DNA of 64,000 bases, taken from the NCBI GenBank assembly GCA_020052095.1, contig JAGVPT010000185.1:4769-68768 (forward strand). Reading direction: 5' to 3'. This document shows, piece after piece, positions 3,592-19,424 of this stretch (positions are counted from its first letter, which is position 1; each line of letters starts with the position of its first letter). A program made the position numbers and the translations under genes. The notes under the pieces were generated by a model that searched no databases, was not told the DNA's origin, and saw nothing but the letters and a program-made list of their open reading frames with translations. Origin of the DNA: Bacteroidota bacterium. Lineage in GTDB: Bacteria > Bacteroidota > Ignavibacteria > UBA10030 > UBA8401.

Positions 3592-3906
3592 ATGTCTGAA
3601 AACGTAACTGCCTTGCCAAAGGTCGCGACGCCGAAGAAGAAGAAAAAGTCGCCACTGGTAGCGATTGTCCATCCGGAAGGATGCACAGGCTGTGAAGTTT
3701 GCATCGAATTTTGTCCTGTCGATTGTCTCTACAAAGTACCCGGCCCCGAAAATCCTGGTGAACATTACAGCAATAATGTCAACGGAATCGTTATCGTTGA
3801 CGAAGAGGTTTGCATCGGCTGCAAACTCTGCGCAAAGTATTGTCCATGGGAAGTGATTGATATGGTTAAGCGCGAAGAAGATACCGCTGTTGCCGCAGCG
3901 GCATAA
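3592..3906 (+). CDS. 2[4Fe-4S] ferredoxin-type protein with Lys-rich N-terminus
   Basis: Two CxxCxxCxxxCP motifs (CTGCEVCIEFCP and CIGCKLCAKYCP) in 104 aa, with a KKKKK stretch near the N-terminus. Confidence 0.75.
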   Translation: MSENVTALPKVATPKKKKKSPLVAIVHPEGCTGCEVCIEFCPVDCLYKVPGPENPGEHYSNNVNGIVIVDEEVCIGCKLCAKYCPWEVIDMVKREEDTAVAAAA

Positions 3907-3972
3907 TTGTTTTTCTTCTTCAAACCCTGAATATCTATTCTACTGAATTTTCATTTTGTCAGAAAGAGTCAG

Positions 3973-4605
3973 TTGATGGCTGATGATATAACCTCTTCTT
4001 CACAGACAGTACCGCCACAGCGACCGCAGGCGTTATCGCAAGAATCACAGATTTCCGCGACACCGATTCCGAAAAAACCCAAACAGGATCGCGCGCCCGA
4101 AAACGACCCCGGCATCTGGAGGATGGGACGGAAGAGCTTTCTCTCTTTCGCAGGGTGGCTTTCGTTTCTCGGTTTCATCGGAATTTCCACAGTTGGTGCG
4201 CTTCGATTCATGTTTCCTCGAGTCCTTTTTGAGCCGCCGAGCAAGTTCAAGGCGGGACTCCCCGGCGACTACGTTATTGGCGAGGTTAATGAAAAATACA
4301 CGGAAGAGCAGCGTATTTGGATAGTGCGCGAGCGAGAGGGTTTCTACGCGCTCATCGCTATTTGCACGCATTTGGGATGCACCCCTCGCTGGCTGACTGC
4401 CGAGAATAAATTCAAGTGTCCTTGCCACGGAAGCGGATATTACAAGGACGGGGTAAATTTTGAAGGGCCGACGCCACGGCCATTGGAGCGCGCGCAAATC
4501 ACGGTGAACGACGACGGAGAAATTGTAATTGATAAGAGCATCAAGTTTCGGTATGAGCTTGGCGAATGGGGAAAAGCGGGATCGTTTCTGAAATATGTCG
4601 GTTGA
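3973..4605 (+). CDS. Rieske [2Fe-2S] iron-sulfur subunit of a cytochrome bc-type complex
   Basis: N-terminal TM helix (FLSFAGWLSFLGFIGISTVGA). Rieske box I CTHLGC and box II CPCHGSGY. Confidence 0.85.
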   Translation: MMADDITSSSQTVPPQRPQALSQESQISATPIPKKPKQDRAPENDPGIWRMGRKSFLSFAGWLSFLGFIGISTVGALRFMFPRVLFEPPSKFKAGLPGDYVIGEVNEKYTEEQRIWIVREREGFYALIAICTHLGCTPRWLTAENKFKCPCHGSGYYKDGVNFEGPTPRPLERAQITVNDDGEIVIDKSIKFRYELGEWGKAGSFLKYVG

Positions 4606-4628
4606 TTTTTTTTTGAAAGGATAGTCTC

Positions 4629-5408
4629 ATGATAAGTCCGATGGAGAAACTTCGGAAGACGGAAGTGTACAAGTCCATCTTTCGACATAAGTATGAGGAC
4701 ACGCCTCGAAATCGGGCACTCCAGATTGTCGACAACGTCTTCCTTCATCTTCATCCGGTGCGGGTTCCGCGTCATGCGACAAATATTGGATACACGTGGG
4801 GGATGGGAGGCATCACGTTTCTTCTTTTTCTCGTCCTGACGTTGACGGGCGTGATTCTGATGTTCTATTATCGGCCGACGGCGCAGTATGCGTACGAAGA
4901 TATGAAGTACTTGATGCATGATGTTCCGTTCGGTCCGCTCATCCGGAATATGCATCGCTGGGGGGCTCATGCAATGGTTATAACGGTTATGCTCCACATG
5001 TTTCGCGTTTTCCTCACCGGTTCATACAAGCCGCCGCGCCAATTCAACTGGGTCGTTGGTGTCGTTCTGCTTCTGCTGACTTTTCTTCTCAGCTTTTCGG
5101 GTTATTTGTTACCCTGGGATCAATTATCGATCTGGGCCGTCACGGTCGGAACAAACATGGCGCGCGCAACGCCGTTACTTGGGCATGAAGGTCCATTCGG
5201 ACCTCAACTAGGCATGCGCCCGGATGCTGACGTTCGTTTCGTCTTGCTGGGAGGAACACAAGTCGGCCCGCCGACATTGCTGCGATTCTATGTCGGTCAT
5301 TGCATCTTTCTTCCGCTCATCGCAACGATTTTTATGGTGGTGCATTTTTGGCGCATCCGAAAAGACGGAGGGATCTCTGGACCGGACACGGGCAAGAAGA
5401 ACTTTTAA
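4629..5408 (+). CDS. Cytochrome b (b6-like N-terminal half, 4 TM)
   Basis: Cyt b/b6 N-terminal signature ([46 protein letters not shown]); 259 aa. Confidence 0.85.
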
Positions 5409-5432
5409 TCCACTAGTCAACACCAAGAACTC

Positions 5433-6338
5433 ATGAACCATCTTTTAGAATTGGTAACGAAGCCGGACAATATTCCGATTGTCGGATTATTGCTGCTCGT
5501 AATTTTCTATTCGTGGCTTGCGTGGACGAAGGCGAGGAAGAACGACTCTCAACAGCTTCCAGACGAGGCACGGCTCGACGACAAAGTGCAAGTATGGCCG
5601 TACCTAGTTCGCGTTGAGTTCCTTGCGATGCTCGTCGTGCTCCTCATACTCGTCGTCTGGTCGGTGTTCATCAACGCGCCCCTGGAAGAACCGGCCAATC
5701 CGGCTCTGACACCAAATCCCTCGAAAGCACCATGGTATTTTTTGGGATTGCAGGAGTTGCTCGTCTATTTCGATCCATGGATTGCCGGCGTCGTGCTCCC
5801 CTCTATTATTATTGTCGGCTTAATGATCATCCCCTATGTGGATATCAACGAAAAAGGAAATGGGTACTACACATTCAAGGAGAGAAAGTTTTCGATACTG
5901 ACATTTTGTTTTGGATTTCTAATCCTGTGGGTTTCGTTGATCGTGCTCGGAACATTCATGCGGGGGCCTGGTTGGAATTTCTTCCTGCCCTGGCAAGATT
6001 GGGACACTCATAAAGTTGTCGTCTTGAACAACGTTGACCTATCCGAATATTTCGGGATGCCTTCTCACTTTCCGGATAACAGTCTCAACATTGCGGCATC
6101 AGCGTTTGGATTTCTGGTTATTGCTGCATTCTATCTCTCCCTTGGTGGCTGGCATTACATGAAATACAAGAACTCCGACGTTGTAAAGAAGCTCGGACTC
6201 GGACGCTACGCCCTCGTCCTTGGCCTTTTTCTGACGATGATGTTTGTTGTTTTGAAAATATTATTGCGTCTCGCTCCTCCGATTTTCGGAGGTTACCCGG
6301 TGAAATATATTTGGGTAACTCCGTGGTTTAATGTGTAA
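5433..6338 (+). CDS. Cytochrome bc-complex subunit IV-like (cytochrome b C-terminal half, extended)
   Basis: PEWY-region equivalent APWYFLGLQELLVYFDPW; multiple TM helices; follows the cyt b6-like gene after a 24-nt gap. Confidence 0.75.
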   Translation: MNHLLELVTKPDNIPIVGLLLLVIFYSWLAWTKARKNDSQQLPDEARLDDKVQVWPYLVRVEFLAMLVVLLILVVWSVFINAPLEEPANPALTPNPSKAPWYFLGLQELLVYFDPWIAGVVLPSIIIVGLMIIPYVDINEKGNGYYTFKERKFSILTFCFGFLILWVSLIVLGTFMRGPGWNFFLPWQDWDTHKVVVLNNVDLSEYFGMPSHFPDNSLNIAASAFGFLVIAAFYLSLGGWHYMKYKNSDVVKKLGLGRYALVLGLFLTMMFVVLKILLRLAPPIFGGYPVKYIWVTPWFNV

Positions 6339-6400
6339 GGACACCTCCGTGAGGTGTCCCTACGAAATTGTTTTCTTAATCCCCTAAGGAGTTCCGGTCA

Positions 6401-8962
6401 ATGTTGCAGAAGCGAGCAGAGACCCCCATTGAAAATAGAAACTACTCGAAGTTCTATCTGATCTTCAGCGGTTTATTGTTTCTTTCGACTCTGTGGGCTG
6501 TGGTCGATGAAGTTGCAGTCCGCCGGCCATGGAAAACGTACCAGGGCGAGTATTACTCCTTAAGCGCGGAAAAAATCCGCGAACAGTACAGAGAGGCCAT
6601 GGCAGCGGTTGACAGTAGTGCAGCCGCTGAGTTGTCAAGCCAACTTGCCGAAGCGAACCAGAGGCTCGAGAGCAAAGAGTATAAAGACGCTGTGAAGAAG
6701 GCTGATGATCTTCAACTCGCGCTTGCGAATGCGACGCGCCGATGGAGCTTTGCGCGCAGCAATTCAGACGCGGCATACTACGAGTACAAGACAACGGTGC
6801 ATGAGGGACATCCGAGCGAGAATTTGAAAAAGAAATTGGATGACCTCGATAATGAAATCGCCGGATATGCAAAGGAGATGGCAGACATTAGTACACAGCT
6901 CCAGTTCGTGAACGCGATCCTCGGCGGTTATAAAAACACAGCGGATAGTCTTGACGTTGCCCTGAAGGCATTGTACGCCGATGCGCACAAACTTAAATCG
7001 AAGTTTGAAGGGATCAAGAAAAGTTCGATCGATATCCGTCAAGTCCTGTTGAACGATTTCGACAAGTCGAATTTCGGAGAAGTCAAGGCGCGCGTCGACC
7101 GATGCCAGACGTGTCATCTCGGTTACAGCGACAAAAACATGTCCGACGCACCGCAGCCGTTCACGACCCACTCGAATCCTGAATTGCTGACGATCCACAA
7201 TCCGGAAAAATTCGGATGCACGCCGTGCCATCGCGGGCAGGGGCATGCGTTGACCGCCGGTAACGCACATGGCGATACAGACCATTATTGGGAAACTCCG
7301 GTCCTTCGGGGCAAAGATGTATACGCATCGTGCAATACGTGCCATTCGATGCGTCAGGCACTGAAAGGTGTCCCGTATTTTTCGAAAGCAAAGCAGACTC
7401 TGCTCGAATCCGGATGTTACGGGTGTCATGAGATAAACGGATTTACAAACCTCCCGAAGATCGGACCTCAGCTCAACACTCTTCCTGCAAAAGTAAAACC
7501 GGAGTGGGTCTATCGTTGGATGCGTAATCCGAAAGAATACAATCCTCGTACGCGCATGCCGAACTTCAGGCTGAGCGAAGAAGAGTCCGAAGCAATCACG
7601 GCATATTTGTTCAGCATCGGGCAAGAGAGCAGTTTCAAATTGGATCGGCCGAAGGGATCATATGCGGGCGGTTCGGCTTCGCGGGGCAGAGAGATTTTTG
7701 AGCTTGTAGGATGCAAAGGATGCCATGTCGTGGGCGACGATGAACGGGTTCGCAACGCTCGTGCGTCGAGCTATGATATTGCTCCCGAGCTGACTCATGC
7801 AGCCGGAAAATTAAATCCTGATTGGATTATTGATTGGATTAAGAATCCTCGTCACTATAATCCTACGACAAAAATGCCGAGCCTTCGTCTCACCGATCAG
7901 GAAGCCCGCGACATCGCAGCATTCGTCATGACGATGCGGGATGACCGGCCCAAAGAGACCTTCACCGGAGACATCGCCTCACACGAGAAGATCGCGCGGG
8001 GAGCAAAAGTGATCCGGGAGTATGGATGCTTCGGTTGTCATGAGATCAAAGGGATGGAGAACGAAAGCAAAGTGAGCGTTAATCTTTCTGATTTTGGCAG
8101 AAAGAAAGTGGAGCAGATGGATTTCGGCGACACTAAAGTGCACCACACCTGGTACGATTGGGTCGGGAACAAGCTGAAGAATTCCCGCGTGTTCCAGACG
8201 GAGCGCATCGTGCAAAAGATGGCGGTGTTTGCTTTTTCGGATGAAGAAGTCAGCCAGCTGAGAATGTTACTGATGAGCTTCCGCGTCGACAATCCCCAGC
8301 CGAAGTATCAGGAACTCGTCACACAACGGTTAACGGACATTGACGCTGGCCAGAAGCTGACGATCCGATACGGTTGCATCAACTGTCATCAGCTCGAGGA
8401 GCGGGGAAGTTACTTCGGTGCACTTCTCGATGAACCGGCGAAGGGTCCGCCGATGATCACCATTGAGGGAGCAAAAGTACAGGAGCCCTGGCTCCAGGGA
8501 TTTCTGAAATCGCCGTCGCCCATCCGCCCGTGGCTGAAAGTTCGGATGCCGACATTTTCGCTGACGGAAGATGAAATCAACACCGTGACAAAATATTTTC
8601 TCGGTTTATCGAAAATGAATCTCGAATTGCGCGATTACGCCGCGTTTACTCCGGATCCGCATCTGTTGCCGGATGGGAAAAAACTGTTCACCGAGTTTCA
8701 GTGCATCAAATGTCATCAACTCGGCGGCGCGGAGATCGACCCGGCGAGCGTCGGTCCGAATCTTGAACTTGCGCGAGGCCGATTGAAACCGGAATGGGTA
8801 GTTTCGTGGCTCAAAAACCCCGAAGCAATCCAACCGGGTACCATGATGCCGGGGTATTTTCCCGACGGACAATCGCCGATGCCCGACGTCATGCATGGAG
8901 ATGCGAAGTTGCAGATGGAAGCAATTCGGGATCATCTGTTTACGCTCGGAAAGAAGAAATGA
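6401..8962 (+). CDS. Membrane-anchored octaheme c-type cytochrome (putative cyt c subunit/electron outlet of the bc-type complex)
   Basis: Eight CxxCH motifs: CQTCH, CTPCH, CNTCH, CYGCH, CKGCH, CFGCH, CINCH, CIKCH. N-terminal TM helix and a coiled-coil-like segment. Several class-I-like modules carry NP..YNP...MP Met-ligand signatures. Confidence 0.8.
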   Translation: MLQKRAETPIENRNYSKFYLIFSGLLFLSTLWAVVDEVAVRRPWKTYQGEYYSLSAEKIREQYREAMAAVDSSAAAELSSQLAEANQRLESKEYKDAVKKADDLQLALANATRRWSFARSNSDAAYYEYKTTVHEGHPSENLKKKLDDLDNEIAGYAKEMADISTQLQFVNAILGGYKNTADSLDVALKALYADAHKLKSKFEGIKKSSIDIRQVLLNDFDKSNFGEVKARVDRCQTCHLGYSDKNMSDAPQPFTTHSNPELLTIHNPEKFGCTPCHRGQGHALTAGNAHGDTDHYWETPVLRGKDVYASCNTCHSMRQALKGVPYFSKAKQTLLESGCYGCHEINGFTNLPKIGPQLNTLPAKVKPEWVYRWMRNPKEYNPRTRMPNFRLSEEESEAITAYLFSIGQESSFKLDRPKGSYAGGSASRGREIFELVGCKGCHVVGDDERVRNARASSYDIAPELTHAAGKLNPDWIIDWIKNPRHYNPTTKMPSLRLTDQEARDIAAFVMTMRDDRPKETFTGDIASHEKIARGAKVIREYGCFGCHEIKGMENESKVSVNLSDFGRKKVEQMDFGDTKVHHTWYDWVGNKLKNSRVFQTERIVQKMAVFAFSDEEVSQLRMLLMSFRVDNPQPKYQELVTQRLTDIDAGQKLTIRYGCINCHQLEERGSYFGALLDEPAKGPPMITIEGAKVQEPWLQGFLKSPSPIRPWLKVRMPTFSLTEDEINTVTKYFLGLSKMNLELRDYAAFTPDPHLLPDGKKLFTEFQCIKCHQLGGAEIDPASVGPNLELARGRLKPEWVVSWLKNPEAIQPGTMMPGYFPDGQSPMPDVMHGDAKLQMEAIRDHLFTLGKKK

Positions 8963-9090
8963 TTTACACCCTTTGTGTCGTTGGCGTCCATTGCGGTTAG
9001 TCTTTAGTCAAATCAACGTGGAAACCGCCAAGGACGCAAAGAGAACAACAAGGAATTTCAAATTCACATTTTTAACAACAAGGAGTAACA

Positions 9091-9789
9091 ATGAAGATAT
9101 TTAATAGCGCGTTGATGTCATTTGCAGTGTTATCCATTAGTACAGTGACAATGTACGCTGGAGATATAGCCGGAAAGATTTCTTTCGATGGGAAGGCGCC
9201 CGCAGTTTCGCAGATCAAAATGAATGCGGATAAACAATGCTTGTCCATGCACCCAAATCCAGTCAACTCGGAAGAAGTTGTCGTCAATGGAAACGGCACG
9301 CTGAAAAACGTCTTTGTGTACGTGAAGGACGGATTGAACAAGAAGTTCGACGTGCCGACGACTCCGGTCGTTCTCGACCAGCATGGCTGCCAGTACACGC
9401 CTCACGTGTTCGGCGTACAGGCCGGACAGTCAATCGAAATTCGCAACAGCGACCCGCTGCTCCACAATATTCACGCCCTGCCGAAGAACAGCCCGCAGTT
9501 CAACAATGCGCAGCCGTTGAAGGGCATGAAGATGACGAAGAAGTTCGACAAGCCGGAGATCATGGTAAAGTTCAAGTGTGAAGTCCACAACTGGATGAAT
9601 TGTTACGCGGGCGTAGTGGATAATCCGTTCTACGCAGTCTCCGACGACAAAGGAACATTCACGATCAAGGGACTTCCGGCAGGAACATATACTGTCGAAG
9701 CATGGCACGAAAAGTACGGAACACAGCAATTGAAAGTTACTGTGAGCGATAAGGGCGCGGCAGCAGATTTCAAATACGCAGGCAAGTAA
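9091..9789 (+). CDS. Secreted cupredoxin-like (type-1 copper) protein, candidate electron carrier to the oxidase
   Basis: Signal peptide MKIFNSALMSFAVLSISTVTMYA. Plastocyanin/amicyanin-like ligand pattern: His in TPHVF and a C-terminal CEVHNWM (CxxHxxM). Confidence 0.5.
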   Translation: MKIFNSALMSFAVLSISTVTMYAGDIAGKISFDGKAPAVSQIKMNADKQCLSMHPNPVNSEEVVVNGNGTLKNVFVYVKDGLNKKFDVPTTPVVLDQHGCQYTPHVFGVQAGQSIEIRNSDPLLHNIHALPKNSPQFNNAQPLKGMKMTKKFDKPEIMVKFKCEVHNWMNCYAGVVDNPFYAVSDDKGTFTIKGLPAGTYTVEAWHEKYGTQQLKVTVSDKGAAADFKYAGK

Positions 9790-9884: not shown

Positions 9885-11621
9885 ATGGAGGGCAACCATT
9901 CGCACGATCATGATCTTGGATTCTGGCGAAAATATATTTTTTCACAGGACCACAAGGTGATCGGAATTCAGTACGGATTTACGAGTCTTCTGTTTCTCCT
10001 TTTCGGATTTGGGTTGATGATTGTGATGCGCTGGCAGCTCGCCTATCCAGGCCAGCCCATTCCATTTATCGGGACTTGGTTTGGTGAAGATCGTGCGCCG
10101 GAGGGAATAATGCTGCCGGAATTCTACAATCAACTGGGCGCGATGCACGGAACGATCATGGTGTTCCTCGGAGTAGTTCCCCTCGCGGTTGGTGCATTTG
10201 GGAACTACATCGTGCCTCTGCAAATCGGCGCGCCGGACATGGCGTTTCCGAAACTCAACATGTCGAGTTACTGGGTCTACTTCGTGGGAGGAGTTACGAT
10301 GCTCGCGAGCTTTCTCATGCCCGGCGGTGCGGCAAATTCAGGTTGGACATCGTATCCGCCCCTTTCTGTCATTGCGACGACAGGGCAGACCTTCTGGCTC
10401 ATCGGGATGGTTTTTCTTATTACCTCCTCGTTGCTCGGCTCGGTGAATTTTATCGTCACGATAATCCAGTTGCGCGCAAAGGGCCTCACATTCATGCGCT
10501 TGCCATTCTTTGTCTGGGCGCAATTCGTGACCTCATTCCTCCTATTGCTCGCGTTTCCGCCGCTCGAAGCGGCTGGCGTCTTGCAGTTGATGGATCGTCT
10601 CGCCGGATCGAGTTTCTTCATGCCGAGCGGGCTCGTAGTGACGGGTCAGGCGCTGAACGTGAGCGGCGGCGGCAGCCCGCTGCTGTGGCAACACCTTTTC
10701 TGGTTTCTCGCGCATCCTGAGGTCTATGTCCTAATCTTGCCTGCGATGGGAATTGTTGGAGAAATAATCGCGAACAATACACGCAAACCATTGTGGGGAT
10801 ACAAATCGATGGTGTACGCGGTGATCTTTCTCGGGTTTATGTCATTCATCGTTTGGGCCCATCATATGTTCATGACGGGGATGGGAACAATCATCAGCAC
10901 ATTCTTCCAGACCACAACGATGATTATTTCGATCCCTTCGATCGTAATTCTCACCGCACTCTTCATTTCTCTCTGGGGCGGGTCAATTCGATTCACGACG
11001 CCGATGCTCTTCGCCCTCGCATTTCTTCCGATGTTCGGCATCGGGGGACTGACCGGATTGCCGCTTGGATTATCGGCGACAGATATTCCTCTTCACGACA
11101 CATATTATGTGATAGGGCATTTCCATTATGTGGTTGCCCCGGGAACAATCTTCGCGCTCTTTGCCGGCATTTATTATTGGTTCCCTAAAATGACGGGGAG
11201 AAAAATGAACGAAGTCCTCGGCAGGATTCATTTCTTCGGCTCACTGGTTTGCATGAACGCGATCTTCATGCCGATGTTCATCGTCGGTCTCGCGGGCGTC
11301 TCGCGTCGATTGTGGGATGGCGGCGCGCAATATGCACATGCTCAGCCGGTATTGCATTGGAATGAATTCATGTCCATGGGGGCCTGGACGCTTGGAATTT
11401 TCCAAATTCCCTTCATTATGAATATCTTCTGGAGCATTTGGAAAGGCAAGAAGGTCGAAGAGAACCACTGGGAGGCGACAACCCTGGAATGGGCAGCACC
11501 TTCGCCTCCGCCTCATGGAAATTTTCTTACAACTCCGGAAGTCTACCGTGCGCCGTACGAATACAGCGTTCCCGGACACAAGAAAGATTTTATTCCGCAG
11601 AATCAACCGATGGAGGCGTAA
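9885..11621 (+). CDS. ctaD: Cytochrome c oxidase subunit I (heme-copper oxidase, A-type)
   Basis: Canonical subunit I motifs: GAPDMAFPKLN, WFLAHPEVYVLILPAMG, HHMF, and a 12-TM pattern. Confidence 0.95.
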   Translation: MEGNHSHDHDLGFWRKYIFSQDHKVIGIQYGFTSLLFLLFGFGLMIVMRWQLAYPGQPIPFIGTWFGEDRAPEGIMLPEFYNQLGAMHGTIMVFLGVVPLAVGAFGNYIVPLQIGAPDMAFPKLNMSSYWVYFVGGVTMLASFLMPGGAANSGWTSYPPLSVIATTGQTFWLIGMVFLITSSLLGSVNFIVTIIQLRAKGLTFMRLPFFVWAQFVTSFLLLLAFPPLEAAGVLQLMDRLAGSSFFMPSGLVVTGQALNVSGGGSPLLWQHLFWFLAHPEVYVLILPAMGIVGEIIANNTRKPLWGYKSMVYAVIFLGFMSFIVWAHHMFMTGMGTIISTFFQTTTMIISIPSIVILTALFISLWGGSIRFTTPMLFALAFLPMFGIGGLTGLPLGLSATDIPLHDTYYVIGHFHYVVAPGTIFALFAGIYYWFPKMTGRKMNEVLGRIHFFGSLVCMNAIFMPMFIVGLAGVSRRLWDGGAQYAHAQPVLHWNEFMSMGAWTLGIFQIPFIMNIFWSIWKGKKVEENHWEATTLEWAAPSPPPHGNFLTTPEVYRAPYEYSVPGHKKDFIPQNQPMEA

Positions 11622-12220: not shown

Positions 12221-12520
12221 ATGGAACTAACCCATGCCGAAGATGTTAAAAAGCATGTCCGTGTTTATGTCACTGTTTTCGTTGCCCTACTTGCCTTGAC
12301 GATTGTGACCGTGACAATTTCGTATCTCAATCTCAGCGTCGTGCCTGCGATCATCGTCGCGTTGATCATTGCCTCAATCAAGGGGTCGCTCGTTGCGAGC
12401 TACTTCATGCATTTGATCTCTGAAAAGAAGTTGATTTTCGCGGCGCTCATTTTGACGGTGGTCTTTTTCCTCGCGTTGATTTTCATCCCACTTCTTGCAA
12501 TGTCGGATAGGATACACTAA
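12221..12520 (+). CDS. ctaF: Cytochrome c oxidase subunit IV (prokaryotic caa3/aa3-type small subunit)
   Basis: About 99 aa, 3-TM protein (KKHVRVYVTVFVALLALTIVTV...). AGGAGA RBS at 12211-12216 before the ATG at 12221. The listed ORF 12155 start overlaps ctaE and is likely too long. Confidence 0.6.
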   Translation: MELTHAEDVKKHVRVYVTVFVALLALTIVTVTISYLNLSVVPAIIVALIIASIKGSLVASYFMHLISEKKLIFAALILTVVFFLALIFIPLLAMSDRIH

Positions 12521-12522
12521 TT

Positions 12523-12729
12523 ATGTCACTCAAAGCATTCCATGTTTTTTTCATCTCCATCTCGATTCTTTTGTGTTTGACCGTGGGAGGATGGGGAATT
12601 CAATCGTTCGTCACCGGTTCGAACTCGGTCGGGATTCTGGTCGGACTATTTTTTATTCTTTTGGGATCCGCCCTCGTTGTCTATGAATTACGATTTCTTC
12701 GCAAATTCAAAAATGTGAGTTACTTATGA
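12523..12729 (+). CDS. Small 2-TM membrane protein of unknown function inside the oxidase operon
   Basis: 68 aa, two hydrophobic helices, 2-nt gap after ctaF. Confidence 0.4.
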   Translation: MSLKAFHVFFISISILLCLTVGGWGIQSFVTGSNSVGILVGLFFILLGSALVVYELRFLRKFKNVSYL

Positions 12730-13004
12730 AAATTGCCGAAACATTCGCCACCGTCGCATTCGTTGTTGCTCTCATCGCGCTTTTCAATCCGGCATCCGCT
12801 CTCGCGTGCGGGAGCTGTTATGGTGCAGCAGATACGCCTGCAACAAACGGGATGAACTTTGCTATCCTCAGTATGCTCGGGATTACGGGTAGCGTTCTTG
12901 CTGCGTTGACATCCTTCTTTTTGTACTTGCGCAAACGCGCCAGACTGAATCTCGCGACTATCGATGATCACGAAATGAGTAACGAAAAGGGAGGCATCCA
13001 ATAA
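12726..13004 (+). CDS. Small 2-TM membrane protein with CGSC (CxxC) motif, unknown function, inside the oxidase operon
   Basis: 92 aa; ALACGSCYGAADTP between two TM segments. Its stop abuts the ctaC start (TAA-ATG). Confidence 0.4.
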   Translation: MKIAETFATVAFVVALIALFNPASALACGSCYGAADTPATNGMNFAILSMLGITGSVLAALTSFFLYLRKRARLNLATIDDHEMSNEKGGIQ

Positions 13005-13973
13005 ATGAAGGAACTATTACATCTTCCTCTTGATGGCTCTGCACACGGATTGGCAATCGATAACATGCTTGCCGCGATTCACTGGCTCATGCTGATCCTT
13101 TTTCTCGGATGGGGAGCTTTTTTCATCTACACACTCATCCGGTTTCGTAAGAAGAAAAATCCTGTCGCCAATTATGCCGGTGTTAAGAGTCATCTCTCGA
13201 GTTATTTAGAAATTGCCGTCGCGGTCTTCGAAGCGGTGCTTCTTATCGGTTTCGCAGTGCCACTCTGGGCAAAACGTGTCAACGAATTCCCGGCGGAGAA
13301 GGACGCCACGATTGTCCGCGTGGTGGCTGAGCAATATTCCTGGAATATTCACTATCCGGGCGCCGATGGGATATTTGGAAGGACATCGATTTCGTTGATC
13401 ACGGATGACAATCCGCTCGGATTGGATCGCACCGATCCGAACGCCAAGGACGATATCGCCACGGTCAATCAGATGCACGTGCCTGTGAACAAGCCGGTGA
13501 TTGTCCGATTGTCATCAAAAGATGTCATTCACAGTTTCGGTGTGCCGACAATGCGGGTGAAGCAGGATGCTATTCCCGGCCAGGTTATCCCGCTTTGGTT
13601 CACGCCGACATTGACAACGGACCAGCTCGTTGCAGAAATGGCTGAGCAATTTCAGTTGAAGCCGGAAGGGACCTCGCCAAAACTATTTGAATACATCGCA
13701 TTGAAAGATTTCATCGCAAAAGACAGCACGGTGGTTTTGAAGAAAGGGGACGTGTTCAGCCAGGATGTCGTGAAATCACTTCTTGATGCCGGCGTTACGC
13801 AAGTCCTGGCCGCTCCCAACGTCACTACTGAAATCGCGTGCGCCCAGTTGTGCGGTCTTGGACATTACCGCATGCGCGGCTACCTGAGCGTTGACACGAA
13901 GGAAGCGTACGATGCGTGGATGGCGGACCAGGTATCCCAATTACCGCAGGATCCGGTCGCGGCGGTAAAATGA
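13005..13973 (+). CDS. ctaC: Cytochrome c oxidase subunit II (CuA-containing, no fused cytochrome c domain)
   Basis: Two N-terminal TM helices. CuA ligands: H in VIHSFGVP, then CAQLCGLGHYRM. About 75 aa inserted before the CuA Cys pair. No CxxCH anywhere. Confidence 0.9.
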   Translation: MKELLHLPLDGSAHGLAIDNMLAAIHWLMLILFLGWGAFFIYTLIRFRKKKNPVANYAGVKSHLSSYLEIAVAVFEAVLLIGFAVPLWAKRVNEFPAEKDATIVRVVAEQYSWNIHYPGADGIFGRTSISLITDDNPLGLDRTDPNAKDDIATVNQMHVPVNKPVIVRLSSKDVIHSFGVPTMRVKQDAIPGQVIPLWFTPTLTTDQLVAEMAEQFQLKPEGTSPKLFEYIALKDFIAKDSTVVLKKGDVFSQDVVKSLLDAGVTQVLAAPNVTTEIACAQLCGLGHYRMRGYLSVDTKEAYDAWMADQVSQLPQDPVAAVK

Positions 13974-13992: not shown

Positions 13993-15018
13993 TTGAAGTA
14001 CAACAAAGGATTACATCGATTTTCGTTCATCACGGTTGCGTGTACCTTCCTCCTCATCATTGCGGGCGGACTGGTTACGAGCACAGGATCGAGTCTGGCG
14101 GTTCCCGATTGGCCTCTTGCGTATGGCATGATCATGCCTCCGATGGTCGGAGGTATTTTGTATGAGCATGGGCACAGGATGCTCGCAACGTTTGTCGGGT
14201 TGTTGACGATTGTCCTTTCGGTTTGGCTATGGAAGAAGGAAGAGCGTCGCTGGTTGAAAATTCTTGGCATCGTTGCCCTCGGTGCGGTTATCACACAAGG
14301 ATTGCTTGGCGGCCTCACGGTTGTTTTCCTGCTTCCGACTGCAATTTCGGTGTCACATGCGACTCTTGCACAGACTTTTTTTGCGATTGTCGCGTCGATT
14401 GCGCTATTCACATCGCGATGGTGGCAATCGGACTATCCCAGATTGGCATCAGAAGGCAGCTTGGCGACGCTCCGGCTTTCATTCTTAACGACCCTTGCAG
14501 TCTTCGTTCAATTGATCTTTGGAGCGCTGATGCGCCATACAGGCTCAGGCCTCGTGGTTCCCGATTTTCCGATGGCGTACGGACAGCTTTTTCCATCTCT
14601 TGGCGCCGAATCACTCGCCCGGTATAATCACGACCTCATCTATTCTGATATTCGGCTTTTTGCCGATGGCGCGGTGACATCGTCCCAAATTGTCATCCAC
14701 ATGCTACATCGGATTTGGGCGGTTGTGGTTGCCGTTCTGATTGTCGCGCTGTCAGCAAATCTGTTAAGGCCATCGAACCTGACTTCTCGGATTAAACGTT
14801 TTGCTTATGCTCTTCCTTTTTTGTTGATCATTCAGATTACACTCGGAGCATACACAGTTCTATCGCGGAAAGCAGTTGAGGTCACCACAGCCCACGTTGC
14901 GACCGGCGCTCTTATCTTGGCAACCTGTCTTCTCGTTTTTCTACATCTTGTAAGAGTTTATCAAGTCCGCTTTAAGAAGTTCTCATTTGTTTATTCCACT
15001 GAAAGAGCGATTGCATGA
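13993..15018 (+). CDS. ctaA: Heme A synthase (COX15/CtaA family)
   Basis: Multi-TM protein with paired His-containing helices, typical of CtaA; positioned between ctaC and ctaB. Confidence 0.8.
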   Translation: MKYNKGLHRFSFITVACTFLLIIAGGLVTSTGSSLAVPDWPLAYGMIMPPMVGGILYEHGHRMLATFVGLLTIVLSVWLWKKEERRWLKILGIVALGAVITQGLLGGLTVVFLLPTAISVSHATLAQTFFAIVASIALFTSRWWQSDYPRLASEGSLATLRLSFLTTLAVFVQLIFGALMRHTGSGLVVPDFPMAYGQLFPSLGAESLARYNHDLIYSDIRLFADGAVTSSQIVIHMLHRIWAVVVAVLIVALSANLLRPSNLTSRIKRFAYALPFLLIIQITLGAYTVLSRKAVEVTTAHVATGALILATCLLVFLHLVRVYQVRFKKFSFVYSTERAIA

Positions 15019-15965
15019 TTGGTGATGCCGAAGCCGTAGCCGTAGCAGCTTTTCCTTATCCACGGTCCACCTGGAAATCTATCGCGGATTACATAGAATT
15101 GATGAAGCCGGAATTGACATCGCTTTCCGTATTGACGGCGCTCTGTGCGTTTTATGTCGCTCACACCGGGATCTGGAGTTCAATAGATACCTGGTTAGTG
15201 ACGAACCTCGCTCTCGGAACAACCCTCGTCGGCGGGGGCGCTGGTGCTCTCAATCAATACCTTGAACGAAAATATGATGGAATGATGAAAAGAACCGAGA
15301 AACGGCCGCTCCCTTCCGGCAGGCTGACTCCGGAAGCTGTCCTCTTTTTCGGAATTTTCATTTCGAGTGCAGGCCTTGTGGAGTTGACGTTTCTCGTGAA
15401 TGGTCTCACCGGATTTCTTGCCGTTGTCACTTTGACGACCTATTTATTTCTGTATACTCCGTTGAAGCGGATTTCGCCGATCGCGACGACCATCGGCGGG
15501 ATTCCTGGAGCATTGCCGCCGATGATGGGGTGGGCGGCCGCGCGAAATGGAATTTCATACGAAGTGATTGTATTTTTCGCGATTCTCTTTTTGTGGCAAA
15601 TGCCCCACTTTTTTTCATTGGCGTGGTTGTACAAGAAAGATTACGCGCGCGCCGGCTACAAATTGCTGACCGTCGAGGATGAGTCCGGCACAAAAACATC
15701 GCGCCACATTCTGGCGAATTGTGCGGCGCTTATCCCGATTAGCCTGATTCCGTCCGTACTCGGAATGACTTCCACCGTGTACTTCATAGGCACATTGGTA
15801 GCGGGGATCGCCTTTTTGTTTTTTGGAATCATGTTCGCGGTTTCATTCTTCTCGACAGAGGGCGACAAGCTCGCGCGGACGAACTTTTTTGCCCGCCGCC
15901 TTTTTTTCGCTTCGCTGGTTTACCTTCCCGTGATTCTCTTCCTAATGGTGATCGACAAGAGATAG
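15015..15965 (+). CDS. ctaB: Protoheme IX farnesyltransferase (heme O synthase, UbiA family)
   Basis: UbiA-family motifs (NQYLERKYDGMMKRTEKRPLPSGRL, D-rich loops); 4-nt overlap with ctaA. Confidence 0.9.
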   Translation: MIGDAEAVAVAAFPYPRSTWKSIADYIELMKPELTSLSVLTALCAFYVAHTGIWSSIDTWLVTNLALGTTLVGGGAGALNQYLERKYDGMMKRTEKRPLPSGRLTPEAVLFFGIFISSAGLVELTFLVNGLTGFLAVVTLTTYLFLYTPLKRISPIATTIGGIPGALPPMMGWAAARNGISYEVIVFFAILFLWQMPHFFSLAWLYKKDYARAGYKLLTVEDESGTKTSRHILANCAALIPISLIPSVLGMTSTVYFIGTLVAGIAFLFFGIMFAVSFFSTEGDKLARTNFFARRLFFASLVYLPVILFLMVIDKR

Positions 15966-15976
15966 GTTGCGAAAAA

Positions 15977-16007
15977 GCTATCCGATTGCTATCAGCAATC
16001 GGATAGC
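15977..16007. repeat. 31-bp perfect palindromic repeat (copy 1 of 4): GCTATCCGATTGCT-atc-AGCAATCGGATAGC
   Basis: 14-bp perfect inverted arms with a 3-nt loop. The same element recurs at 22453, about 24258 and 61951. Confidence 0.8.
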
Positions 16008-16013
16008 TACGAA

Positions 16014-16042
16014 TTGTTAGCAGCGCTATCTTTTCGTATATT
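16014..16042 (+). promoter_or_regulatory. Candidate sigma70-type promoter for the ABC exporter-SCO transcription unit
   Basis: TTGTTA (16014-16019), 17 nt, TATATT (16037-16042); 27 nt upstream of the ATG at 16069. Confidence 0.3.
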
Positions 16043-16068: not shown

Positions 16069-17016
16069 ATGAATGAATCTATAGTCATCGTTTCGGATTT
16101 AACACACGACTACGCGGAACGCCGCGCCCTGGATAACGTCTCCCTCGCTATCGCCAAAAATGAGATTTTCGGTTTCCTCGGGCCAAATGGCGGTGGGAAG
16201 ACGACAATGTTCAAGATACTCTCCACTGCGATAACGCCGACAAGCGGCCGCGCTGAAGTGTGCGGGTACGATGTTGTCAAACGTTCATCCGAAGTGCGAA
16301 GGCATATTGGCGTCGTGTTTCAATCGCCGAGCCTCGATGTCAAGTTGACTGTGAGGGAGAATCTGCGATTTCACGGACTTCTTCACGGATTGCATGGAAC
16401 GACGGCCTCGCAAAGAATTGACGACGTGCTGATCCATCTGAAGCTCGTCGACCGAGCGCATGATACCGTGGAGATGCTTTCCGGGGGCTTGCAACGGCGA
16501 GTCGAAATTGGAAAAGGCTTGCTTCATCGTCCTGATGTTCTCATTCTTGATGAACCGAGCACGGGACTCGACCCGGGGGCGCGGCGAGATCTGTGGGACT
16601 ATCTGCTTCAGCTCCGCAAGGAGACCGGGGTTACGGTTGTCGTCACTTCTCATATATTGGATGAAGCCGAACATTGCGACCGCCTCGTGATTCTCGACAA
16701 AGGAAAACTTGTCGCTATCGGAACGCCGGATAAGTTGAAACGAGAGGTCGGCGGCGAGGTCATTTCAATTGTAGCGAAAGATCCTGCTGAGGCGCGCATC
16801 TTGCTGAAAAGGAAATTCAAGCTGGCATCGACAATCGTGGAGAACACAATTCGCGTCGAAAAGAACAACGGGCATCAATTTGTTCCGAAGATTGTGGAGG
16901 CCTTCCCGGGTAAAATCGAAGCCATCTCTGTGGGAAAACCGACGCTCGAAGACGTCTTCATTCATCACACAGGACACAGAATGCGAAATGAAGAATCGAG
17001 CGGGGTGGATACGTAG
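16069..17016 (+). CDS. ABC transporter ATP-binding protein (ABC-2 exporter type)
   Basis: Walker A GPNGGGKTT, ABC signature LSGGLQRRV, Walker B LILDEPSTGLD, H-loop. Confidence 0.85.
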   Translation: MNESIVIVSDLTHDYAERRALDNVSLAIAKNEIFGFLGPNGGGKTTMFKILSTAITPTSGRAEVCGYDVVKRSSEVRRHIGVVFQSPSLDVKLTVRENLRFHGLLHGLHGTTASQRIDDVLIHLKLVDRAHDTVEMLSGGLQRRVEIGKGLLHRPDVLILDEPSTGLDPGARRDLWDYLLQLRKETGVTVVVTSHILDEAEHCDRLVILDKGKLVAIGTPDKLKREVGGEVISIVAKDPAEARILLKRKFKLASTIVENTIRVEKNNGHQFVPKIVEAFPGKIEAISVGKPTLEDVFIHHTGHRMRNEESSGVDT

Positions 17017-17052
17017 TGCTGCTCCGAAAAATAAATATTGTGCTTTGAAATG

Positions 17053-17170
17053 TCTTGTCATCCTTCGACGCAGCCGCGACGGTCATCCTGAGCAAGCAGA
17101 GCGCGTCGTCAACGACCCGATGGGTCGTCGACCCGTCGGGAAGGAGGCCGTCGCGGCTTTGCTCAGGATG
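17053..17170. repeat. GC-rich composite intergenic repeat, copy A (short form)
   Basis: Shares tgtcatcc..ttcgacgc and a 39-nt core, cgtcaacgacccgatgggtcgtcgacccgtcgggaagga, with 18909-18947 (36/39 identical). Contains interleaved inverted repeats gccgcgacgg/ccgtcgcggc and catcctgagcaa/ttgctcaggatg. Confidence 0.6.
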
Positions 17171-17290
17171 AGCACCATGATAAGAATGCAAGATTGTTTA
17201 ATTGTCGCGGTACTAGCAACGGGGAGCCTGGAAAGAGAAAAGTATTAATCAAATATCCAACAGCAACCCATTAATCCGAAATAGAAACCA

Positions 17291-18073
17291 ATGAACATCA
17301 CCACAGAAATCGTATTGCCGACATACTCGCTCTGGATGAGGGAGTTGATCCGCTTTTTTCGTCAGAGGAGCAGGATGATTGGCGTGATTGGTTCGCCGAT
17401 ATTGTTCTGGTTCTTCATCGGTTCCGGGCTGGGGAGTTCTTTTCGGATGAGTTCGCCGAAGGGAGATACAAGTTATCTTGAATACTTTTTCCCGGGCACG
17501 CTCCTCCTCATTATGCTGTTCACTGCGATTTTCTCGACGATCTCGATCATTGAAGATAGGAAAGAGGGCTTCCTGCAATCGGTTCTGGTGGCGCCGATTT
17601 CCGGCGCCGGAATTGCACTAGGGAAGATATTTGGCGGCACAACTCTCGCGGTCATTCAAGCGATTATTTTTCTTGCCTTCGCGCCCCTCATCGGCTTTCA
17701 ATTTAGCGTTCTGGAATTCCTTTCCCTTATCGTGTTGCTTTTCGTTATCGCCTTCGGACTAACCGGCCTCGGCTTCCTGATCGCCTGGCGGATGGAGTCG
17801 ACACAGGGGTTTCACGCTATCATGAATTTGTTTCTGATCCCGCTCTGGTTGCTTTCGGGTTCCTTGTTTCCGATGGAAGGGGCCCCGGGATGGCTGCGAG
17901 GAATTATGTCTATCAATCCCCTTACCTATTCCGTTTCTGCCACAAGGCTGATGTTATATCATCAGGCTCGCATCGAACACCCGGGGTTCATTTTTTCAGT
18001 GTGCGTCATTCTCTCATTTTGTGCTATTGTATTTATCGGGTCAATGCTCTCCGTAAGAAAGAAATCAATATGA
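17291..18073 (+). CDS. ABC-2 type transporter permease
   Basis: 260 aa, 6 predicted TM, ABC-2 family-like; downstream of the ATPase. Confidence 0.7.
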   Translation: MNITTEIVLPTYSLWMRELIRFFRQRSRMIGVIGSPILFWFFIGSGLGSSFRMSSPKGDTSYLEYFFPGTLLLIMLFTAIFSTISIIEDRKEGFLQSVLVAPISGAGIALGKIFGGTTLAVIQAIIFLAFAPLIGFQFSVLEFLSLIVLLFVIAFGLTGLGFLIAWRMESTQGFHAIMNLFLIPLWLLSGSLFPMEGAPGWLRGIMSINPLTYSVSATRLMLYHQARIEHPGFIFSVCVILSFCAIVFIGSMLSVRKKSI

Positions 18074-18705
18074 AGTTATCGACCGGTCATATTTCGTTCC
18101 GCACTTTTTTTCTTTGGGGATTACTCGGGTTTGTGATTGCTGCCACCATATTTTCCTTTCTCTACACCGAGATAATATCTCCCGCCAAAAGCTCTCTGCC
18201 GCGTACTGGAATAGTTCCAGAAATCACTCTTACAGAGCGTAGCGGCCGGAAACTCCCGCTCTCCGATCTGAAAGGGAAGGTGTGGATCGCCGATTTCATC
18301 TTCACAAACTGCGGCGGCAGTTGCCCCATCATGACCAGCACAATGGCGAGCTTTCAAGAACAGATTAAGAATGTGAACAATATTGTTCTTGTTTCGTTCA
18401 CCGTCGATCCTGAACGCGATTCTCCTCAAGCCCTCAGCGAATATGCGGAACTCTACAAGGCGTCTCCTTCTCGATGGCTCTTCCTGACAGGGGAGAAGAA
18501 GAAACTGAATTACCTGACGCGCGATTGCTTTCATCTTGCCGTTGCAGCTGATTCCGGATCGACCGTCGAACCAATCGTTCACAGTACGCTATTTGTTCTG
18601 GTCGATAAGCAGGGAGTCATCCGTGGATATTACGACTCAACTGACGAAAACGCGCTCGAGAAGATTGTCGCAGATGCCCGCGGATTGGCATCTGAAAAGA
18701 ATTGA
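18070..18705 (+). CDS. SCO1/SenC family copper chaperone (thioredoxin-like; CuA assembly)
   Basis: N-terminal TM anchor; CGGSCP (CxxxC) motif and a downstream His, as in SCO proteins. Its ATG overlaps the permease stop (ATGA at 18070-18073). Confidence 0.75.
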   Translation: MKLSTGHISFRTFFLWGLLGFVIAATIFSFLYTEIISPAKSSLPRTGIVPEITLTERSGRKLPLSDLKGKVWIADFIFTNCGGSCPIMTSTMASFQEQIKNVNNIVLVSFTVDPERDSPQALSEYAELYKASPSRWLFLTGEKKKLNYLTRDCFHLAVAADSGSTVEPIVHSTLFVLVDKQGVIRGYYDSTDENALEKIVADARGLASEKN

Positions 18706-18722
18706 AGACTATCTCAAAAACG

Positions 18723-18950
18723 CTCTGTCATCCGCCCTTCGACGCTCCCGAGTTCGTCGGTCGACGACTCGACTCGTCGAGGTCTATCGACCCGTCGGGT
18801 CGTTCTACGAATCTACGATTCGTAGAATCGTAGATAGACGACTCGTCGAGGATTGCTCAGGGTGAACAGGTTCCGTGTTCATCCTGAGGTGAGCGAAGCG
18901 AACGCATCGTCCACGACCCGATGGGTCGTAGACCCGTAGGGAAGGATTGA
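18723..18950. repeat. GC-rich composite intergenic repeat, copy B (long form)
   Basis: Same ends as copy A, plus about 130 extra nt containing gacgactcgactcgtcgagg, tcgacccgtcgggtcg and the hairpin ctacgaatc-tac-gattcgtag. Internal segment 18745-18810 matches 22650-22702 in inverted orientation. Confidence 0.6.
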
Positions 18951-19004
18951 TTGGAATGATTTTGAAATAGCTTATAGTCAACTACTCCATCCGAATCGCT
19001 GAGA

Positions 19005-19424
19005 GTGGTGATGGACTTGTCTTTTCTGCCAACCGTGAACGCTTTCTTGAATGGACTGACCGGCGCATTGCTGTTAGTTGGTTATTTTTTTATTCGAAAA
19101 GGGAACCGATCCATACACAAAAGAGTGATGCTGACTGCTTTCTCAACCTCAATCTTGTTCTTAATCTCCTACCTTTACTATCACGCTCACGTCGGATCCA
19201 TCCCCTTCAAAGGAACAGGCGTGGCGCGTCCCGTTTACTTTACAATTCTCGTCTCACATTCGATTCTTGCGGCAGTAATTGTGCCCATGGCAATCGTCAC
19301 GCTATCTCGCGCATTGTCATCCCGATTTGACAAACACAAAAAACTCGCTCGCTGGACGCTCCCAATTTGGCTTTACGTGTCGGTGACAGGAGTGACAGTA
19401 TATGTGATGCTGTATCATCTGTGA
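19005..19424 (+). CDS. DUF420-family membrane protein (CtaM-like oxidase accessory factor)
   Basis: 139 aa, 4 TM, conserved His-containing helices typical of DUF420, which is associated with aa3 oxidase operons. Confidence 0.6.
   Translation: MVMDLSFLPTVNAFLNGLTGALLLVGYFFIRKGNRSIHKRVMLTAFSTSILFLISYLYYHAHVGSIPFKGTGVARPVYFTILVSHSILAAVIVPMAIVTLSRALSSRFDKHKKLARWTLPIWLYVSVTGVTVYVMLYHL

Follow-up and report, generated by a model that had tools for sequence, protein, structure and literature searches.

A Rieske/split cytochrome b/octaheme cytochrome c operon joined to a cupredoxin and an A-family oxidase: a predicted quinol-to-O2 chain in an Ignavibacteria-like genome

The question raised by the locus described here is how electrons withdrawn from quinol by a bc-type complex could reach an aa3-type oxidase whose subunit II carries no heme c. 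The locus occupies positions 3592-19424 of a 64,000-nucleotide stretch of contig JAGVPT010000185.1 from a Bacteroidota bacterium of the Ignavibacteria lineage (this whole stretch is referred to below as the window). It consists of 18 consecutive open reading frames (ORFs), all on the + strand, in the order ferredoxin, Rieske protein, split cytochrome b, octaheme cytochrome c, cupredoxin, ctaD-ctaE-ctaF, s68, s92, ctaC, ctaA, ctaB, an ABC-2 transporter pair, SCO and DUF420/CtaM. Sixteen of the ORFs were named by family searches (Pfam, NCBIfam); the two small ones after ctaF, which we call s68 and s92, matched no Pfam or NCBIfam family even at E-values up to 10. We consider it likely, with a probability of about 0.7, that the cluster encodes a two-module quinol-to-O2 chain in which the cupredoxin links the octaheme outlet of a bc complex of the APWY type to the CuA centre of an A-family oxidase devoid of heme c.

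The cluster is genuine and is kept in related genomes; its parts are of known kinds, and it is their combination that is new. The initial annotation of this DNA, made by eye, had placed these genes in the same interval and in one orientation, and the ORFs together with the Pfam and NCBIfam matches bear this out; its count of sixteen genes has to be corrected to 18. Its calls of a b6-like split cytochrome b, an octaheme cytochrome c, ctaA and ctaB, ABC-2, SCO and DUF420 genes are all supported by family or motif searches, and the order ctaD-E-F-x-x-ctaC to which it drew attention is evident from the ORF positions. Separate gene calling on a public contig of 92% identity also gave the same gene set over the part which that contig covers. 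No exact match to the octaheme protein was found in public assemblies, the nearest contig being 92% identical with the same gene context.

An alignment-seeded scan with one genome per species detected relatives of the octaheme protein in at least 579 species genomes. The best 80 of the 579 octaheme loci were taken as the synteny sample, against which all 18 window proteins were searched by tblastn; the frequencies given in this work describe that sample only. A locus from the Ignavibacteria-like genomes (hereafter, the clade) was regarded as informative if at least 3 kb of sequence was available downstream of the octaheme gene, which gave 41 species genomes. In 26 of these, the cupredoxin gene and ctaD directly follow the octaheme gene; in 15, neither is found, and there are no discordant cases. 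The scattering among relatives that would have spoken against the module suggested by the initial annotation is thus not observed: genomes either keep the linkage or lack the whole cupredoxin-to-DUF420 block. The order from the Rieske gene to ctaB and then DUF420, including the ctaD-E-F-s68-s92-ctaC-ctaA-ctaB arrangement, recurs in Ignavibacteria/Bacteroidota metagenome-assembled genomes (MAGs) down to ca. 50% identity of the octaheme protein. The surrounding frame is conserved as well, with bshC on the opposite strand, an optional ferredoxin gene, the Rieske-to-octaheme genes, the optional cupredoxin-to-DUF420 genes and then PNP through thymidine kinase on the opposite strand; in clade genomes without cupredoxin and oxidase, PNP begins within ca. 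100 nucleotides (nt) of the octaheme stop codon. Since the frame is conserved and the genes within it are all-or-none, cupredoxin-to-DUF420 can be described as a cassette of 7-10 kb that is present or absent at one chromosomal site. The synteny comparison proposed in the initial annotation was thus made among Ignavibacteria-like genomes; Ignavibacterium itself, also proposed, was not apt, since for the type strain of I. album the absence of any Rieske/cytochrome b complex has been reported, with alternative complex III (ACIII) plus a caa3 oxidase instead (PMC3362086).

Across the sample, 48 of 69 loci have the cupredoxin gene immediately downstream of the octaheme gene. In phyla other than that of the clade (Binatia, Methylomirabilota, delta-proteobacterial and Myxococcales MAGs) this is so in 15 of 20 loci, which ties the cupredoxin to the bc complex as well as to the oxidase. 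An oxidase is adjacent in only two of 16 such loci, both from Binatia (L063 and L078), where the genes are in the canonical ctaC-ctaD order, CtaC is short and CtaD contains the K-channel lysine discussed below; Binatia joined the same bc core to an oxidase independently. In Kryptonia, the oxidase genes are upstream of the bc core, and two Methylomirabilota loci (L073, L075) contain the same core with an octaheme protein 35% identical to that of the window. In three loci from delta-proteobacterial and Binatia genomes (L066, L074 and L076), a protein of 447-481 amino acids with an N-terminal dinucleotide-binding motif, VGAGPAG, is encoded shortly after the cupredoxin, at ca. 13.7-16.0 kb; possibly this is the partner binding NAD(P) that has been described as accompanying clade-G cytochromes b.

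The first module of the predicted chain is the bc complex. Its Rieske [2Fe-2S] subunit (209 amino acids, 3976-4605, +) matches PF00355 and contains the boxes CTHLGC and CPCHGSGY, which are kept in 65 of 66 aligned loci; the NCBIfam b6f and bc1 Rieske models match it below their cut-offs, and the start codon yielding 209 residues is also that of the gene call in L081. The next gene (4629-5408, +) encodes a cytochrome b6-like subunit that matches PF00033 over the whole four-helix bundle (E 7e-46) and scores 278.6 bits against the ExtP model (cut-off 290). The motifs HRWGA, MLHMF, GHCIF and VVHFW are found in its translation, and by comparison with b6 their histidines are probably the four ligands of the two b hemes. 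The subunit reads W-G-M-G-G-I-T, with a glycine at what is presumably the position of the b6f heme-cn cysteine. In b6, the corresponding motif is Y-C-x-G-G-I-T, the cysteine being that of CxGG (PMC5600118). The C-terminal part of cytochrome b is encoded separately, as an extended subunit-IV-like protein of 301 amino acids (5433-6338, +; PF00032), so that the split is of the b6f type. Its Qo motif is APWY rather than PEWY or PDWY, and TPNPSKAPWYFLGLQE is invariant in 74 loci. Because of this motif, we assign the complex to the APWY clade; judging by sequence, it belongs to the uncharacterised APWY/clade-G type. Dibrova clade G includes Candidatus Methylomirabilis oxyfera (PMC5600118), and the APWY clade had no characterised member as of 2014 (PMC4122944).

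No cytochrome f or c1 that might accept electrons from the Rieske protein was found in the cluster, the single Cytochrom_C1 match being below cut-off (E 0.004). In its place there is a membrane-anchored octaheme cytochrome c of 853 amino acids (6401-8962, +) with exactly eight CXXCH motifs and matches to Cytochrom_C (four) and Cytochrome_C7. The protein starts with a transmembrane helix, which is followed by a coiled-coil region of ca. 180 amino acids, then by three c7-like hemes that lie close together, and finally by five cytochrome c modules of class I. A total of 1991 homologues were found, and all eight motifs are invariant among 14 homologues compared. A sequence search of the PDB for a solved relative returned only one trivial monoheme match. 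This architecture agrees with the published description of Kustd1485, which has been modelled with long helices wrapping the complex (PMC12954380).

The product of the gene that follows (232 amino acids, 9091-9789, +) is a predicted periplasmic cupredoxin-containing protein. Since Pfam names only CarboxypepD_reg in it, with Copper-bind at E 0.03, the cupredoxin call needed structural support, which was supplied by an AlphaFold2 (AF2) model (predicted local distance difference test score, pLDDT, 86) and Foldseek. The best Foldseek matches of the central domain are amicyanin and plastocyanin (probability 1.00, TM-score ca. 0.68 relative to the target). This domain (residues ca. 90-176) is inserted in a CarboxypepD_reg/transthyretin-like beta-sandwich formed by a strand at residues 23-33 plus residues 181-230. 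Among 51 homologues taken from the loci and 30 from databases, H125, C163, H166 and M169 never vary, and C50, C100, H105 and H128 are invariant as well. With H125 (or H128) as the first histidine, the type-1 copper set of His, Cys, His and Met is complete, and its C-x2-H-x2-M spacing is that of amicyanin. The initial annotation spoke of a soluble blue-copper shuttle. The blue-copper fold and ligand set hold; the protein may be soluble or membrane-bound, depending on whether its N-terminal helix is a cleaved signal or an anchor. From the ligand set and the model, we infer that the protein is a type-1 copper electron carrier.

The remaining core genes encode the oxidase. Subunit I, CtaD (9885-11621, +), is of the A family (PF00115, COX1, E 9e-134; 581.8 bits against TIGR02891, cut-off 670.75) and aligns end to end with the Paracoccus denitrificans enzyme (1ar1_A). 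This alignment shows that all six histidines coordinating heme a, heme a3 and CuB are present, as is the cross-link tyrosine of HPEVY. Identity as a nitric oxide reductase was rejected in view of this tyrosine and the three CuB histidines. The D-channel is complete, with the aspartate of PDMAFP, the asparagines and the glutamate of HPEVY (A1 subtype), the last being kept in clade representatives. The K-channel lysine (K354 in P. denitrificans) is replaced by isoleucine. Isoleucine, valine or leucine stands at this position in 29 of 29 homologues from islands of this kind and in every 50%-cluster representative at least 50% identical to the window CtaD; the Binatia homologues keep lysine. Of 131 representatives whose alignment spans the site, 75 have lysine, and each of these 75 is at most 48% identical to the window protein. 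Several other distant A-family-like subunit I clusters (P0412, P0427 and P0461 among others) have Gln, Leu, Met or Glu there, and variants without the lysine thus seem to occur in more than a single lineage. A-family oxidases have been described as having two conserved channels (PMC11214002). The window CtaD is unusual in this respect but not unprecedented, because archaea have been discussed as a case in which A-family enzymes lost the K-channel (PMC8239418).

Subunit III, CtaE (11628-12212, +), is a short form of 194 amino acids with matches to PF00510 (COX3) and to the CyoC and actinobacterial CtaE models, and subunit IV, CtaF (12221-12520, +), matches PF03626 (COX4_pro) and TIGR02229 (42.9 bits, cut-off 37.25). 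The next ORF, s68 (12523-12729, +), encodes a two-helix membrane protein of 68 amino acids with an invariant N-terminus, MSLKAFH, and is probably a small oxidase subunit. Its neighbour s92 (12726-13004, +) encodes a 92-residue hairpin membrane protein with a conserved ACxxCxG loop between the helices, which the positive-inside rule places in the periplasm; we regard it as a candidate CuA/thiol assembly factor or small subunit. Each of the two is kept in position in 25 further loci.

Subunit II, CtaC (322 amino acids, 13005-13973, +), matches PF00116 (COX2) and contains no CXXCH. Its CuA ligands, H176, C279, C283, H287 and M290 (H...CxxxCxxxHxxM), are invariant in 30 sequences, in agreement with the initial description of an A-type oxidase whose subunit II has CuA and lacks a heme-c domain; among 120 homologues, only PF00116 was found and no fused cytochrome c domain of the caa3 type. 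The AF2 fold is that of an aa3 subunit II, with actinobacterial supercomplex CtaC chains among the matches. As can be seen in the model, an alpha/beta module of ca. 70 amino acids (residues ca. 205-275, pLDDT 85-89) is inserted in the cupredoxin domain of CtaC between the CuA histidine and the CxxxCxxxHxxM loop. The insert is found throughout the clade. It is duplicated in P0273 and P0331, and duplicated or further expanded among CoxII homologues of 360-457 amino acids, including P0292, and so appears to evolve as a repeatable unit. Its only sequence match is a sub-threshold one to PF07697 (7TMR-HDED C-terminal module) in three long variants, and the whole-protein fold search, dominated by subunit II, returned no match to the module by which it could be named. 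Its motif may resemble the "BBM2" module of RNA polymerase subunits, which we mention as a lead, not as a result.

Genes for cofactor synthesis and assembly complete the cassette. Heme A synthase CtaA (13993-15018, +; PF02628, E 4e-40) and heme O synthase CtaB (15015-15965, +; TIGR01473, 280 bits, cut-off 210) are encoded directly after ctaC, which predicts heme A as the oxidase cofactor. At the distal end there is a DUF420 gene (19005-19424, +; PF04238, E 1e-45), whose product is of the CtaM type, a protein required for aa3 function in Staphylococcus (PMC4958251).

In the chain that we propose, the first module (Rieske protein, b6-like cytochrome b, extended subunit IV and octaheme cytochrome c) would oxidise (mena)quinol at the Qo site, and one electron would pass via the Rieske cluster into the eight-heme, membrane-anchored wire. 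The second module would be the cassette, comprising cupredoxin, CtaD-E-F, s68, s92, CtaC, CtaA, CtaB and DUF420, with ABC-2 and SCO in some lineages. Electrons would move from the octaheme cytochrome to the cupredoxin and on through CuA, heme a and the heme a3-CuB site to O2, the cupredoxin replacing the soluble or fused cytochrome c used elsewhere. Several observations weigh against this proposal. The bc-octaheme genes are without an adjacent oxidase in 15 of 41 clade loci and 14 of 16 other-phylum loci, so the complex must also serve other acceptors. Reverse operation has been proposed for the APWY clade (PMC4122944). The catalytic competence of the oxidase is an assumption, since the K-channel lysine of canonical A-family enzymes is missing. 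Hairpins after the ferredoxin gene and ctaB, together with distal repeat elements, may split transcription. Lastly, the linkage frequencies come from the best 80 of 579 loci.

The main rival explanation, which we hold to be unlikely, needs no mobile carrier: the octaheme subunit would dock on the ca. 70-residue insert of CtaC and reduce CuA directly in an obligate supercomplex, as diheme QcrC does in the actinobacterial bcc-aa3, and the cupredoxin would then serve as a subunit of the assembly, as a branch leading off to other acceptors or as a factor that delivers copper. The N-terminal transmembrane helix and long helical region of the octaheme protein would suit such an assembly, given the wrapping helices modelled for Kustd1485 (PMC12954380), and so would the confidently folded insert that CtaC, devoid of heme c, carries throughout the clade, its structural matches to actinobacterial supercomplex chains, the two extra small membrane proteins inside the oxidase operon and a cupredoxin with an extra beta-sandwich domain and possibly an uncleaved N-terminal helix. 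However, the type-1 copper ligand set is complete in every cupredoxin homologue, and in other phyla the cupredoxin accompanies the bc complex even when no oxidase is adjacent. This association with the bc complex is easier to reconcile with a role in carrying electrons than with one in oxidase assembly.

The two other explanations considered fit the distribution data less well than the bridged chain. One of them, which we find improbable, sees the two modules as independent neighbours: the bc-octaheme complex would run in reverse or feed anaerobic acceptors, the oxidase would use another donor, and their adjacency would reflect an insertion hot-spot. The cassette does behave as a clean indel at a single site, the 15 cassette-free clade genomes and most other phyla have a complete bc-octaheme operon, and APWY complexes possibly run in reverse (PMC4122944). 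On the other hand, the presence of the cupredoxin coincides with that of the oxidase in 41 of 41 informative clade genomes; deeply diverged genomes share the strand, the gene order and the short spacers; and an oxidase cluster stands beside the same bc core in two other lineages, downstream in Binatia and upstream in Kryptonia. In addition, CtaC, which has no heme c, depends on a donor from outside, and a candidate for this role is encoded close by.

The last alternative concerns the ferredoxin, a 2x[4Fe-4S] protein of 104 amino acids (3592-3906, +; Fer4 families) with two CxxCxxCxxxCP motifs, a Lys-rich N-terminus and no signal peptide. Its gene precedes the Rieske gene in 20 of 44 Ignavibacteria-like loci and in none of 15 other-phylum loci; identity is 71-90% in the clade loci that carry it and 57-58% in two Kryptonia loci. 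The ferredoxin might exchange electrons with the b6-like complex on the n-side (cytoplasmic side), in the manner of the NAD(P) oxidoreductase subunits in the anammox clade-G enzymes, making the complex bifurcating or ferredoxin-linked instead of a plain Q-cycle enzyme: its gene is co-directional, 69 nt upstream of the Rieske gene and behind the only strong promoter-like site, its conservation across the subclade is comparable to or above that of the Rieske protein in most loci, and cytoplasmic FeS/NAD(P) proteins are found together with cytochromes b of clade G (PMC5600118, PMC12954380). We consider this very unlikely, given that all 15 other-phylum loci and 24 of 44 clade loci lack the ferredoxin, the operon of those clade loci, oxidase carriers included, starting at the Rieske gene after divergent bshC, that a hairpin separates the two genes, and that the ferredoxin has no membrane-association features beyond its Lys-rich N-terminus. 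The glycine at the presumed heme-cn cysteine position of cytochrome b also speaks against a ferredoxin-linked enzyme. For the same distributional reasons, the ferredoxin was rejected as a constant subunit.

The ABC-2 and SCO genes are likewise found in a minority of loci only, and they and the ferredoxin are lineage-specific add-ons. The ABC-2 pair consists of a DrrA-like ATPase (16069-17016, +; PF00005, PF13732; TIGR01188 below cut-off) and a DrrB-like permease (17291-18073, +; PF01061; TIGR01247 below cut-off); a NosFY- or CcmAB-like identity was rejected because only generic DrrAB-type matches were obtained. SCO1/SenC, a copper chaperone of 211 amino acids (18070-18705, +; PF02630, E 4e-24), starts from an ATG overlapping the permease stop codon. 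In a Myxococcales MAG (L067), the cupredoxin gene is followed, at 12.7-16.9 kb, by ctaB, SCO and an inverted ABC-2 pair 52-55% identical to that of the window; the exporter is thus met again, in a distant phylum, alongside genes concerned with heme O and copper assembly.

Putative transcription signals were sought throughout the cluster. The sole strong σ70-like match in an 18-kb scan is TTGACA-17-TATATT with TG (3451-3479, +), 113 nt upstream of the ferredoxin gene, a promoter candidate that matches the consensus at 11 of 12 positions. The Bacteroidetes-type -7 motif TAnnTTTG is absent from all intergenic spacers of the cluster. A GC-rich hairpin with a 7-bp stem overlapping the end of the ferredoxin gene (3884-3901, +; -13.8 kcal/mol, z -2.1), with a T-run 8 nt after the stem, is a weak attenuator or terminator candidate. 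The octaheme-cupredoxin spacer contains a stem-loop (8969-9040, +; -33.2 kcal/mol, z -2.8) without a U-run. From the Rieske gene to ctaB the spacers are of -4 to 128 nt, and no canonical terminator was found in that stretch; a single Rieske-to-ctaB transcript is therefore plausible on this layout. The genes beyond ctaB may be separate transcription units.

Several palindromic repeats lie in this distal part. The first, after ctaB (15960-16031; -38.7 kcal/mol, z -5.1), resembles a repetitive extragenic palindromic (REP) element with a perfect 15-bp inner stem followed by a U-rich tract, and is a candidate internal terminator or RNA-stabilising element. It belongs to a family, D1, with four copies of ca. 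66 nt in the window (15961-16026, 22436-22501, 24238-24303 and 61935-62000), all intergenic and at gene ends; with their perfect palindrome core, AGCTATCCGATTGCT...AGCAATCGGATAGCT, the copies have a REP-like or terminator-like look. A second type, D2, fills the gap between the ABC ATPase and permease genes (17081-17173; -68.7 kcal/mol, z -4.5) with an element resembling a REP or a miniature inverted-repeat transposable element, and its second copy, together with an inverted repeat, I1, makes up two palindromic elements in the SCO-DUF420 gap (18730-18957). The palindromic elements of these two long spacers, with a further one at 22650-22695, have the form GTCATCCTGAGC...GCTCAGGATGAGC around a core of GACCCGATGGGTCG. 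L001, the closest relative, has no such elements at either place, and there the ATPase and permease genes, as well as SCO and DUF420, abut.

The boundaries of the cluster given in the initial annotation agree with our data. Upstream, PD40 and SDR genes are on the opposite strand; downstream, so are PNP, nucleoside transporter and thymidine kinase genes, and the promoter-like site precedes the first gene. DUF420 and PNP converge on a 16-bp hairpin that has an A-run on one side and a U-run on the other (19462-19496; region -54.7 kcal/mol, z -5.4) and is a candidate bidirectional terminator closing the cluster. Base composition gives no sign of recent transfer, the cluster GC content of 0.49-0.52 being inside the range of the window. 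The bshC gene is found at 44709-46391 (+), 25 kb from the cluster; in most relatives it is divergent and directly upstream of the Rieske or ferredoxin gene, and its displacement points to a rearrangement in the lineage of the window.

Elsewhere in the window there are a tmRNA gene (33866-34232; tag peptide ADYNYALAA), tRNA-Lys(CTT) at 24832-24905 and tRNA-Leu(CAA) at 61751-61837 on the - strand. A MotA/ExbB-type channel gene (27075-27923, +) adjoins the gene of a 619-amino-acid protein with FliG middle and C-terminal domains (28636-30495, +); no other flagellar genes were found among the window ORFs scanned. An ORF of 1174 codons (58114-61638, -) matches no Pfam family at E ≤ 1e-5.

The locus does not overturn current understanding; it provides genetic context for a widespread and biochemically untouched class of bc complexes, as the number of species genomes with octaheme relatives illustrates. 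That this complex is strictly paired with a cupredoxin, and within one clade with an O2 reductase as well, is an argument that enzymes of the APWY type are able to oxidise quinol in the forward direction, and the published idea of reverse operation thereby becomes testable. The oxidases appear to form a natural A-family subfamily with a D-channel, without the K-channel lysine and with an insert in the CuA domain, a case for the study of proton delivery and partner docking. The presence or absence of the cupredoxin-to-CtaM cassette is also a simple genomic marker for Ignavibacteria-like lineages carrying this oxidase. A more far-reaching reading, possible but put forward tentatively, would have the APWY complex act as a forward complex III and pass electrons through the octaheme wire to the two-domain cupredoxin, which would dock on the CtaC insert of a D-channel-pumping, K-lysine-less oxidase, possibly within a bc-Cu-aa3 supercomplex containing two new small subunits.

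The literature searched yielded no account of such a fused cluster from Ignavibacteria-like genomes, nor of the cupredoxin as a conserved partner, nor of an oxidase clade that lacks the lysine and bears the insert; this is no proof of novelty. The closest relatives of the first module are the operons of Nitrospina gracilis, Candidatus Kuenenia stuttgartiensis (Kustd1480-1485) and Ca. M. oxyfera, which share with it the Rieske protein, four-helix b6-like cytochrome b, extended subunit IV and atypical octaheme cytochrome c (PMC3578206, PMC12954380, PMC5600118); the operon of Rieske, split cytochrome b and octaheme genes in these three organisms had already been pointed out (PMC3578206). The APWY motif is also shared (Dibrova clade G; the "APWY clade" of Kao and Hunte). 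Unlike these operons, that of the window has no NAD(P) oxidoreductase subunit, a small ferredoxin being encoded instead in a subclade only, and no heme-cn cysteine, and in the clade of the window it is joined to an aa3-type oxidase cassette. Cupredoxin-like proteins are mentioned in the consulted part of PMC3578206 only for the separate NXR cluster, whereas the window cupredoxin gene directly follows the octaheme gene.

From the same phylogenetic neighbourhood as the window come the ACIII-caa3 clusters of I. album, Flavobacterium johnsoniae and Rhodothermus marinus, where, as here, a quinol:acceptor oxidoreductase is encoded beside an A-family oxidase and heme A genes (PMC3362086). The window differs in having a Rieske/cytochrome b complex, a subunit II without fused cytochrome c and the ctaD-E-F-x-x-ctaC order. 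The rus operon of Acidithiobacillus ferrooxidans (cytochromes c, coxBACD, rusticyanin) likewise combines an aa3-type oxidase with c cytochromes and an electron-carrying cupredoxin, often with heme A genes at the operon end (PMC8239418). There, however, electrons come from extracellular Fe(II) and not from a quinol-oxidising bc complex, and the cupredoxin family and gene order differ; we found no evidence of iron oxidation in the window cluster.

The actinobacterial bcc-aa3 (qcrCAB with ctaCDEF) also has a membrane-anchored multi-heme cytochrome c, a subunit II without heme c, linked genes and a short subunit III, and NCBIfam actinobacterial models match CtaD, CtaE and CtaC of the window, all far below their cut-offs. 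The actinobacterial system is not known to have a carrier. In contrast, the window encodes a dedicated cupredoxin, eight hemes instead of two, a split rather than long cytochrome b and APWY instead of the actinobacterial Qo motif, and its two modules are associated by gene linkage and co-inheritance. Finally, the cytochrome b6f-plastocyanin pair resembles the proposed chain in that a complex with split cytochrome b donates to a small type-1 copper protein. That chain has no cytochrome f, heme-cn cysteine or photosystem; its predicted copper acceptor is a two-domain protein with amicyanin-like ligand spacing, and an octaheme wire would stand between the Rieske protein and the copper protein.

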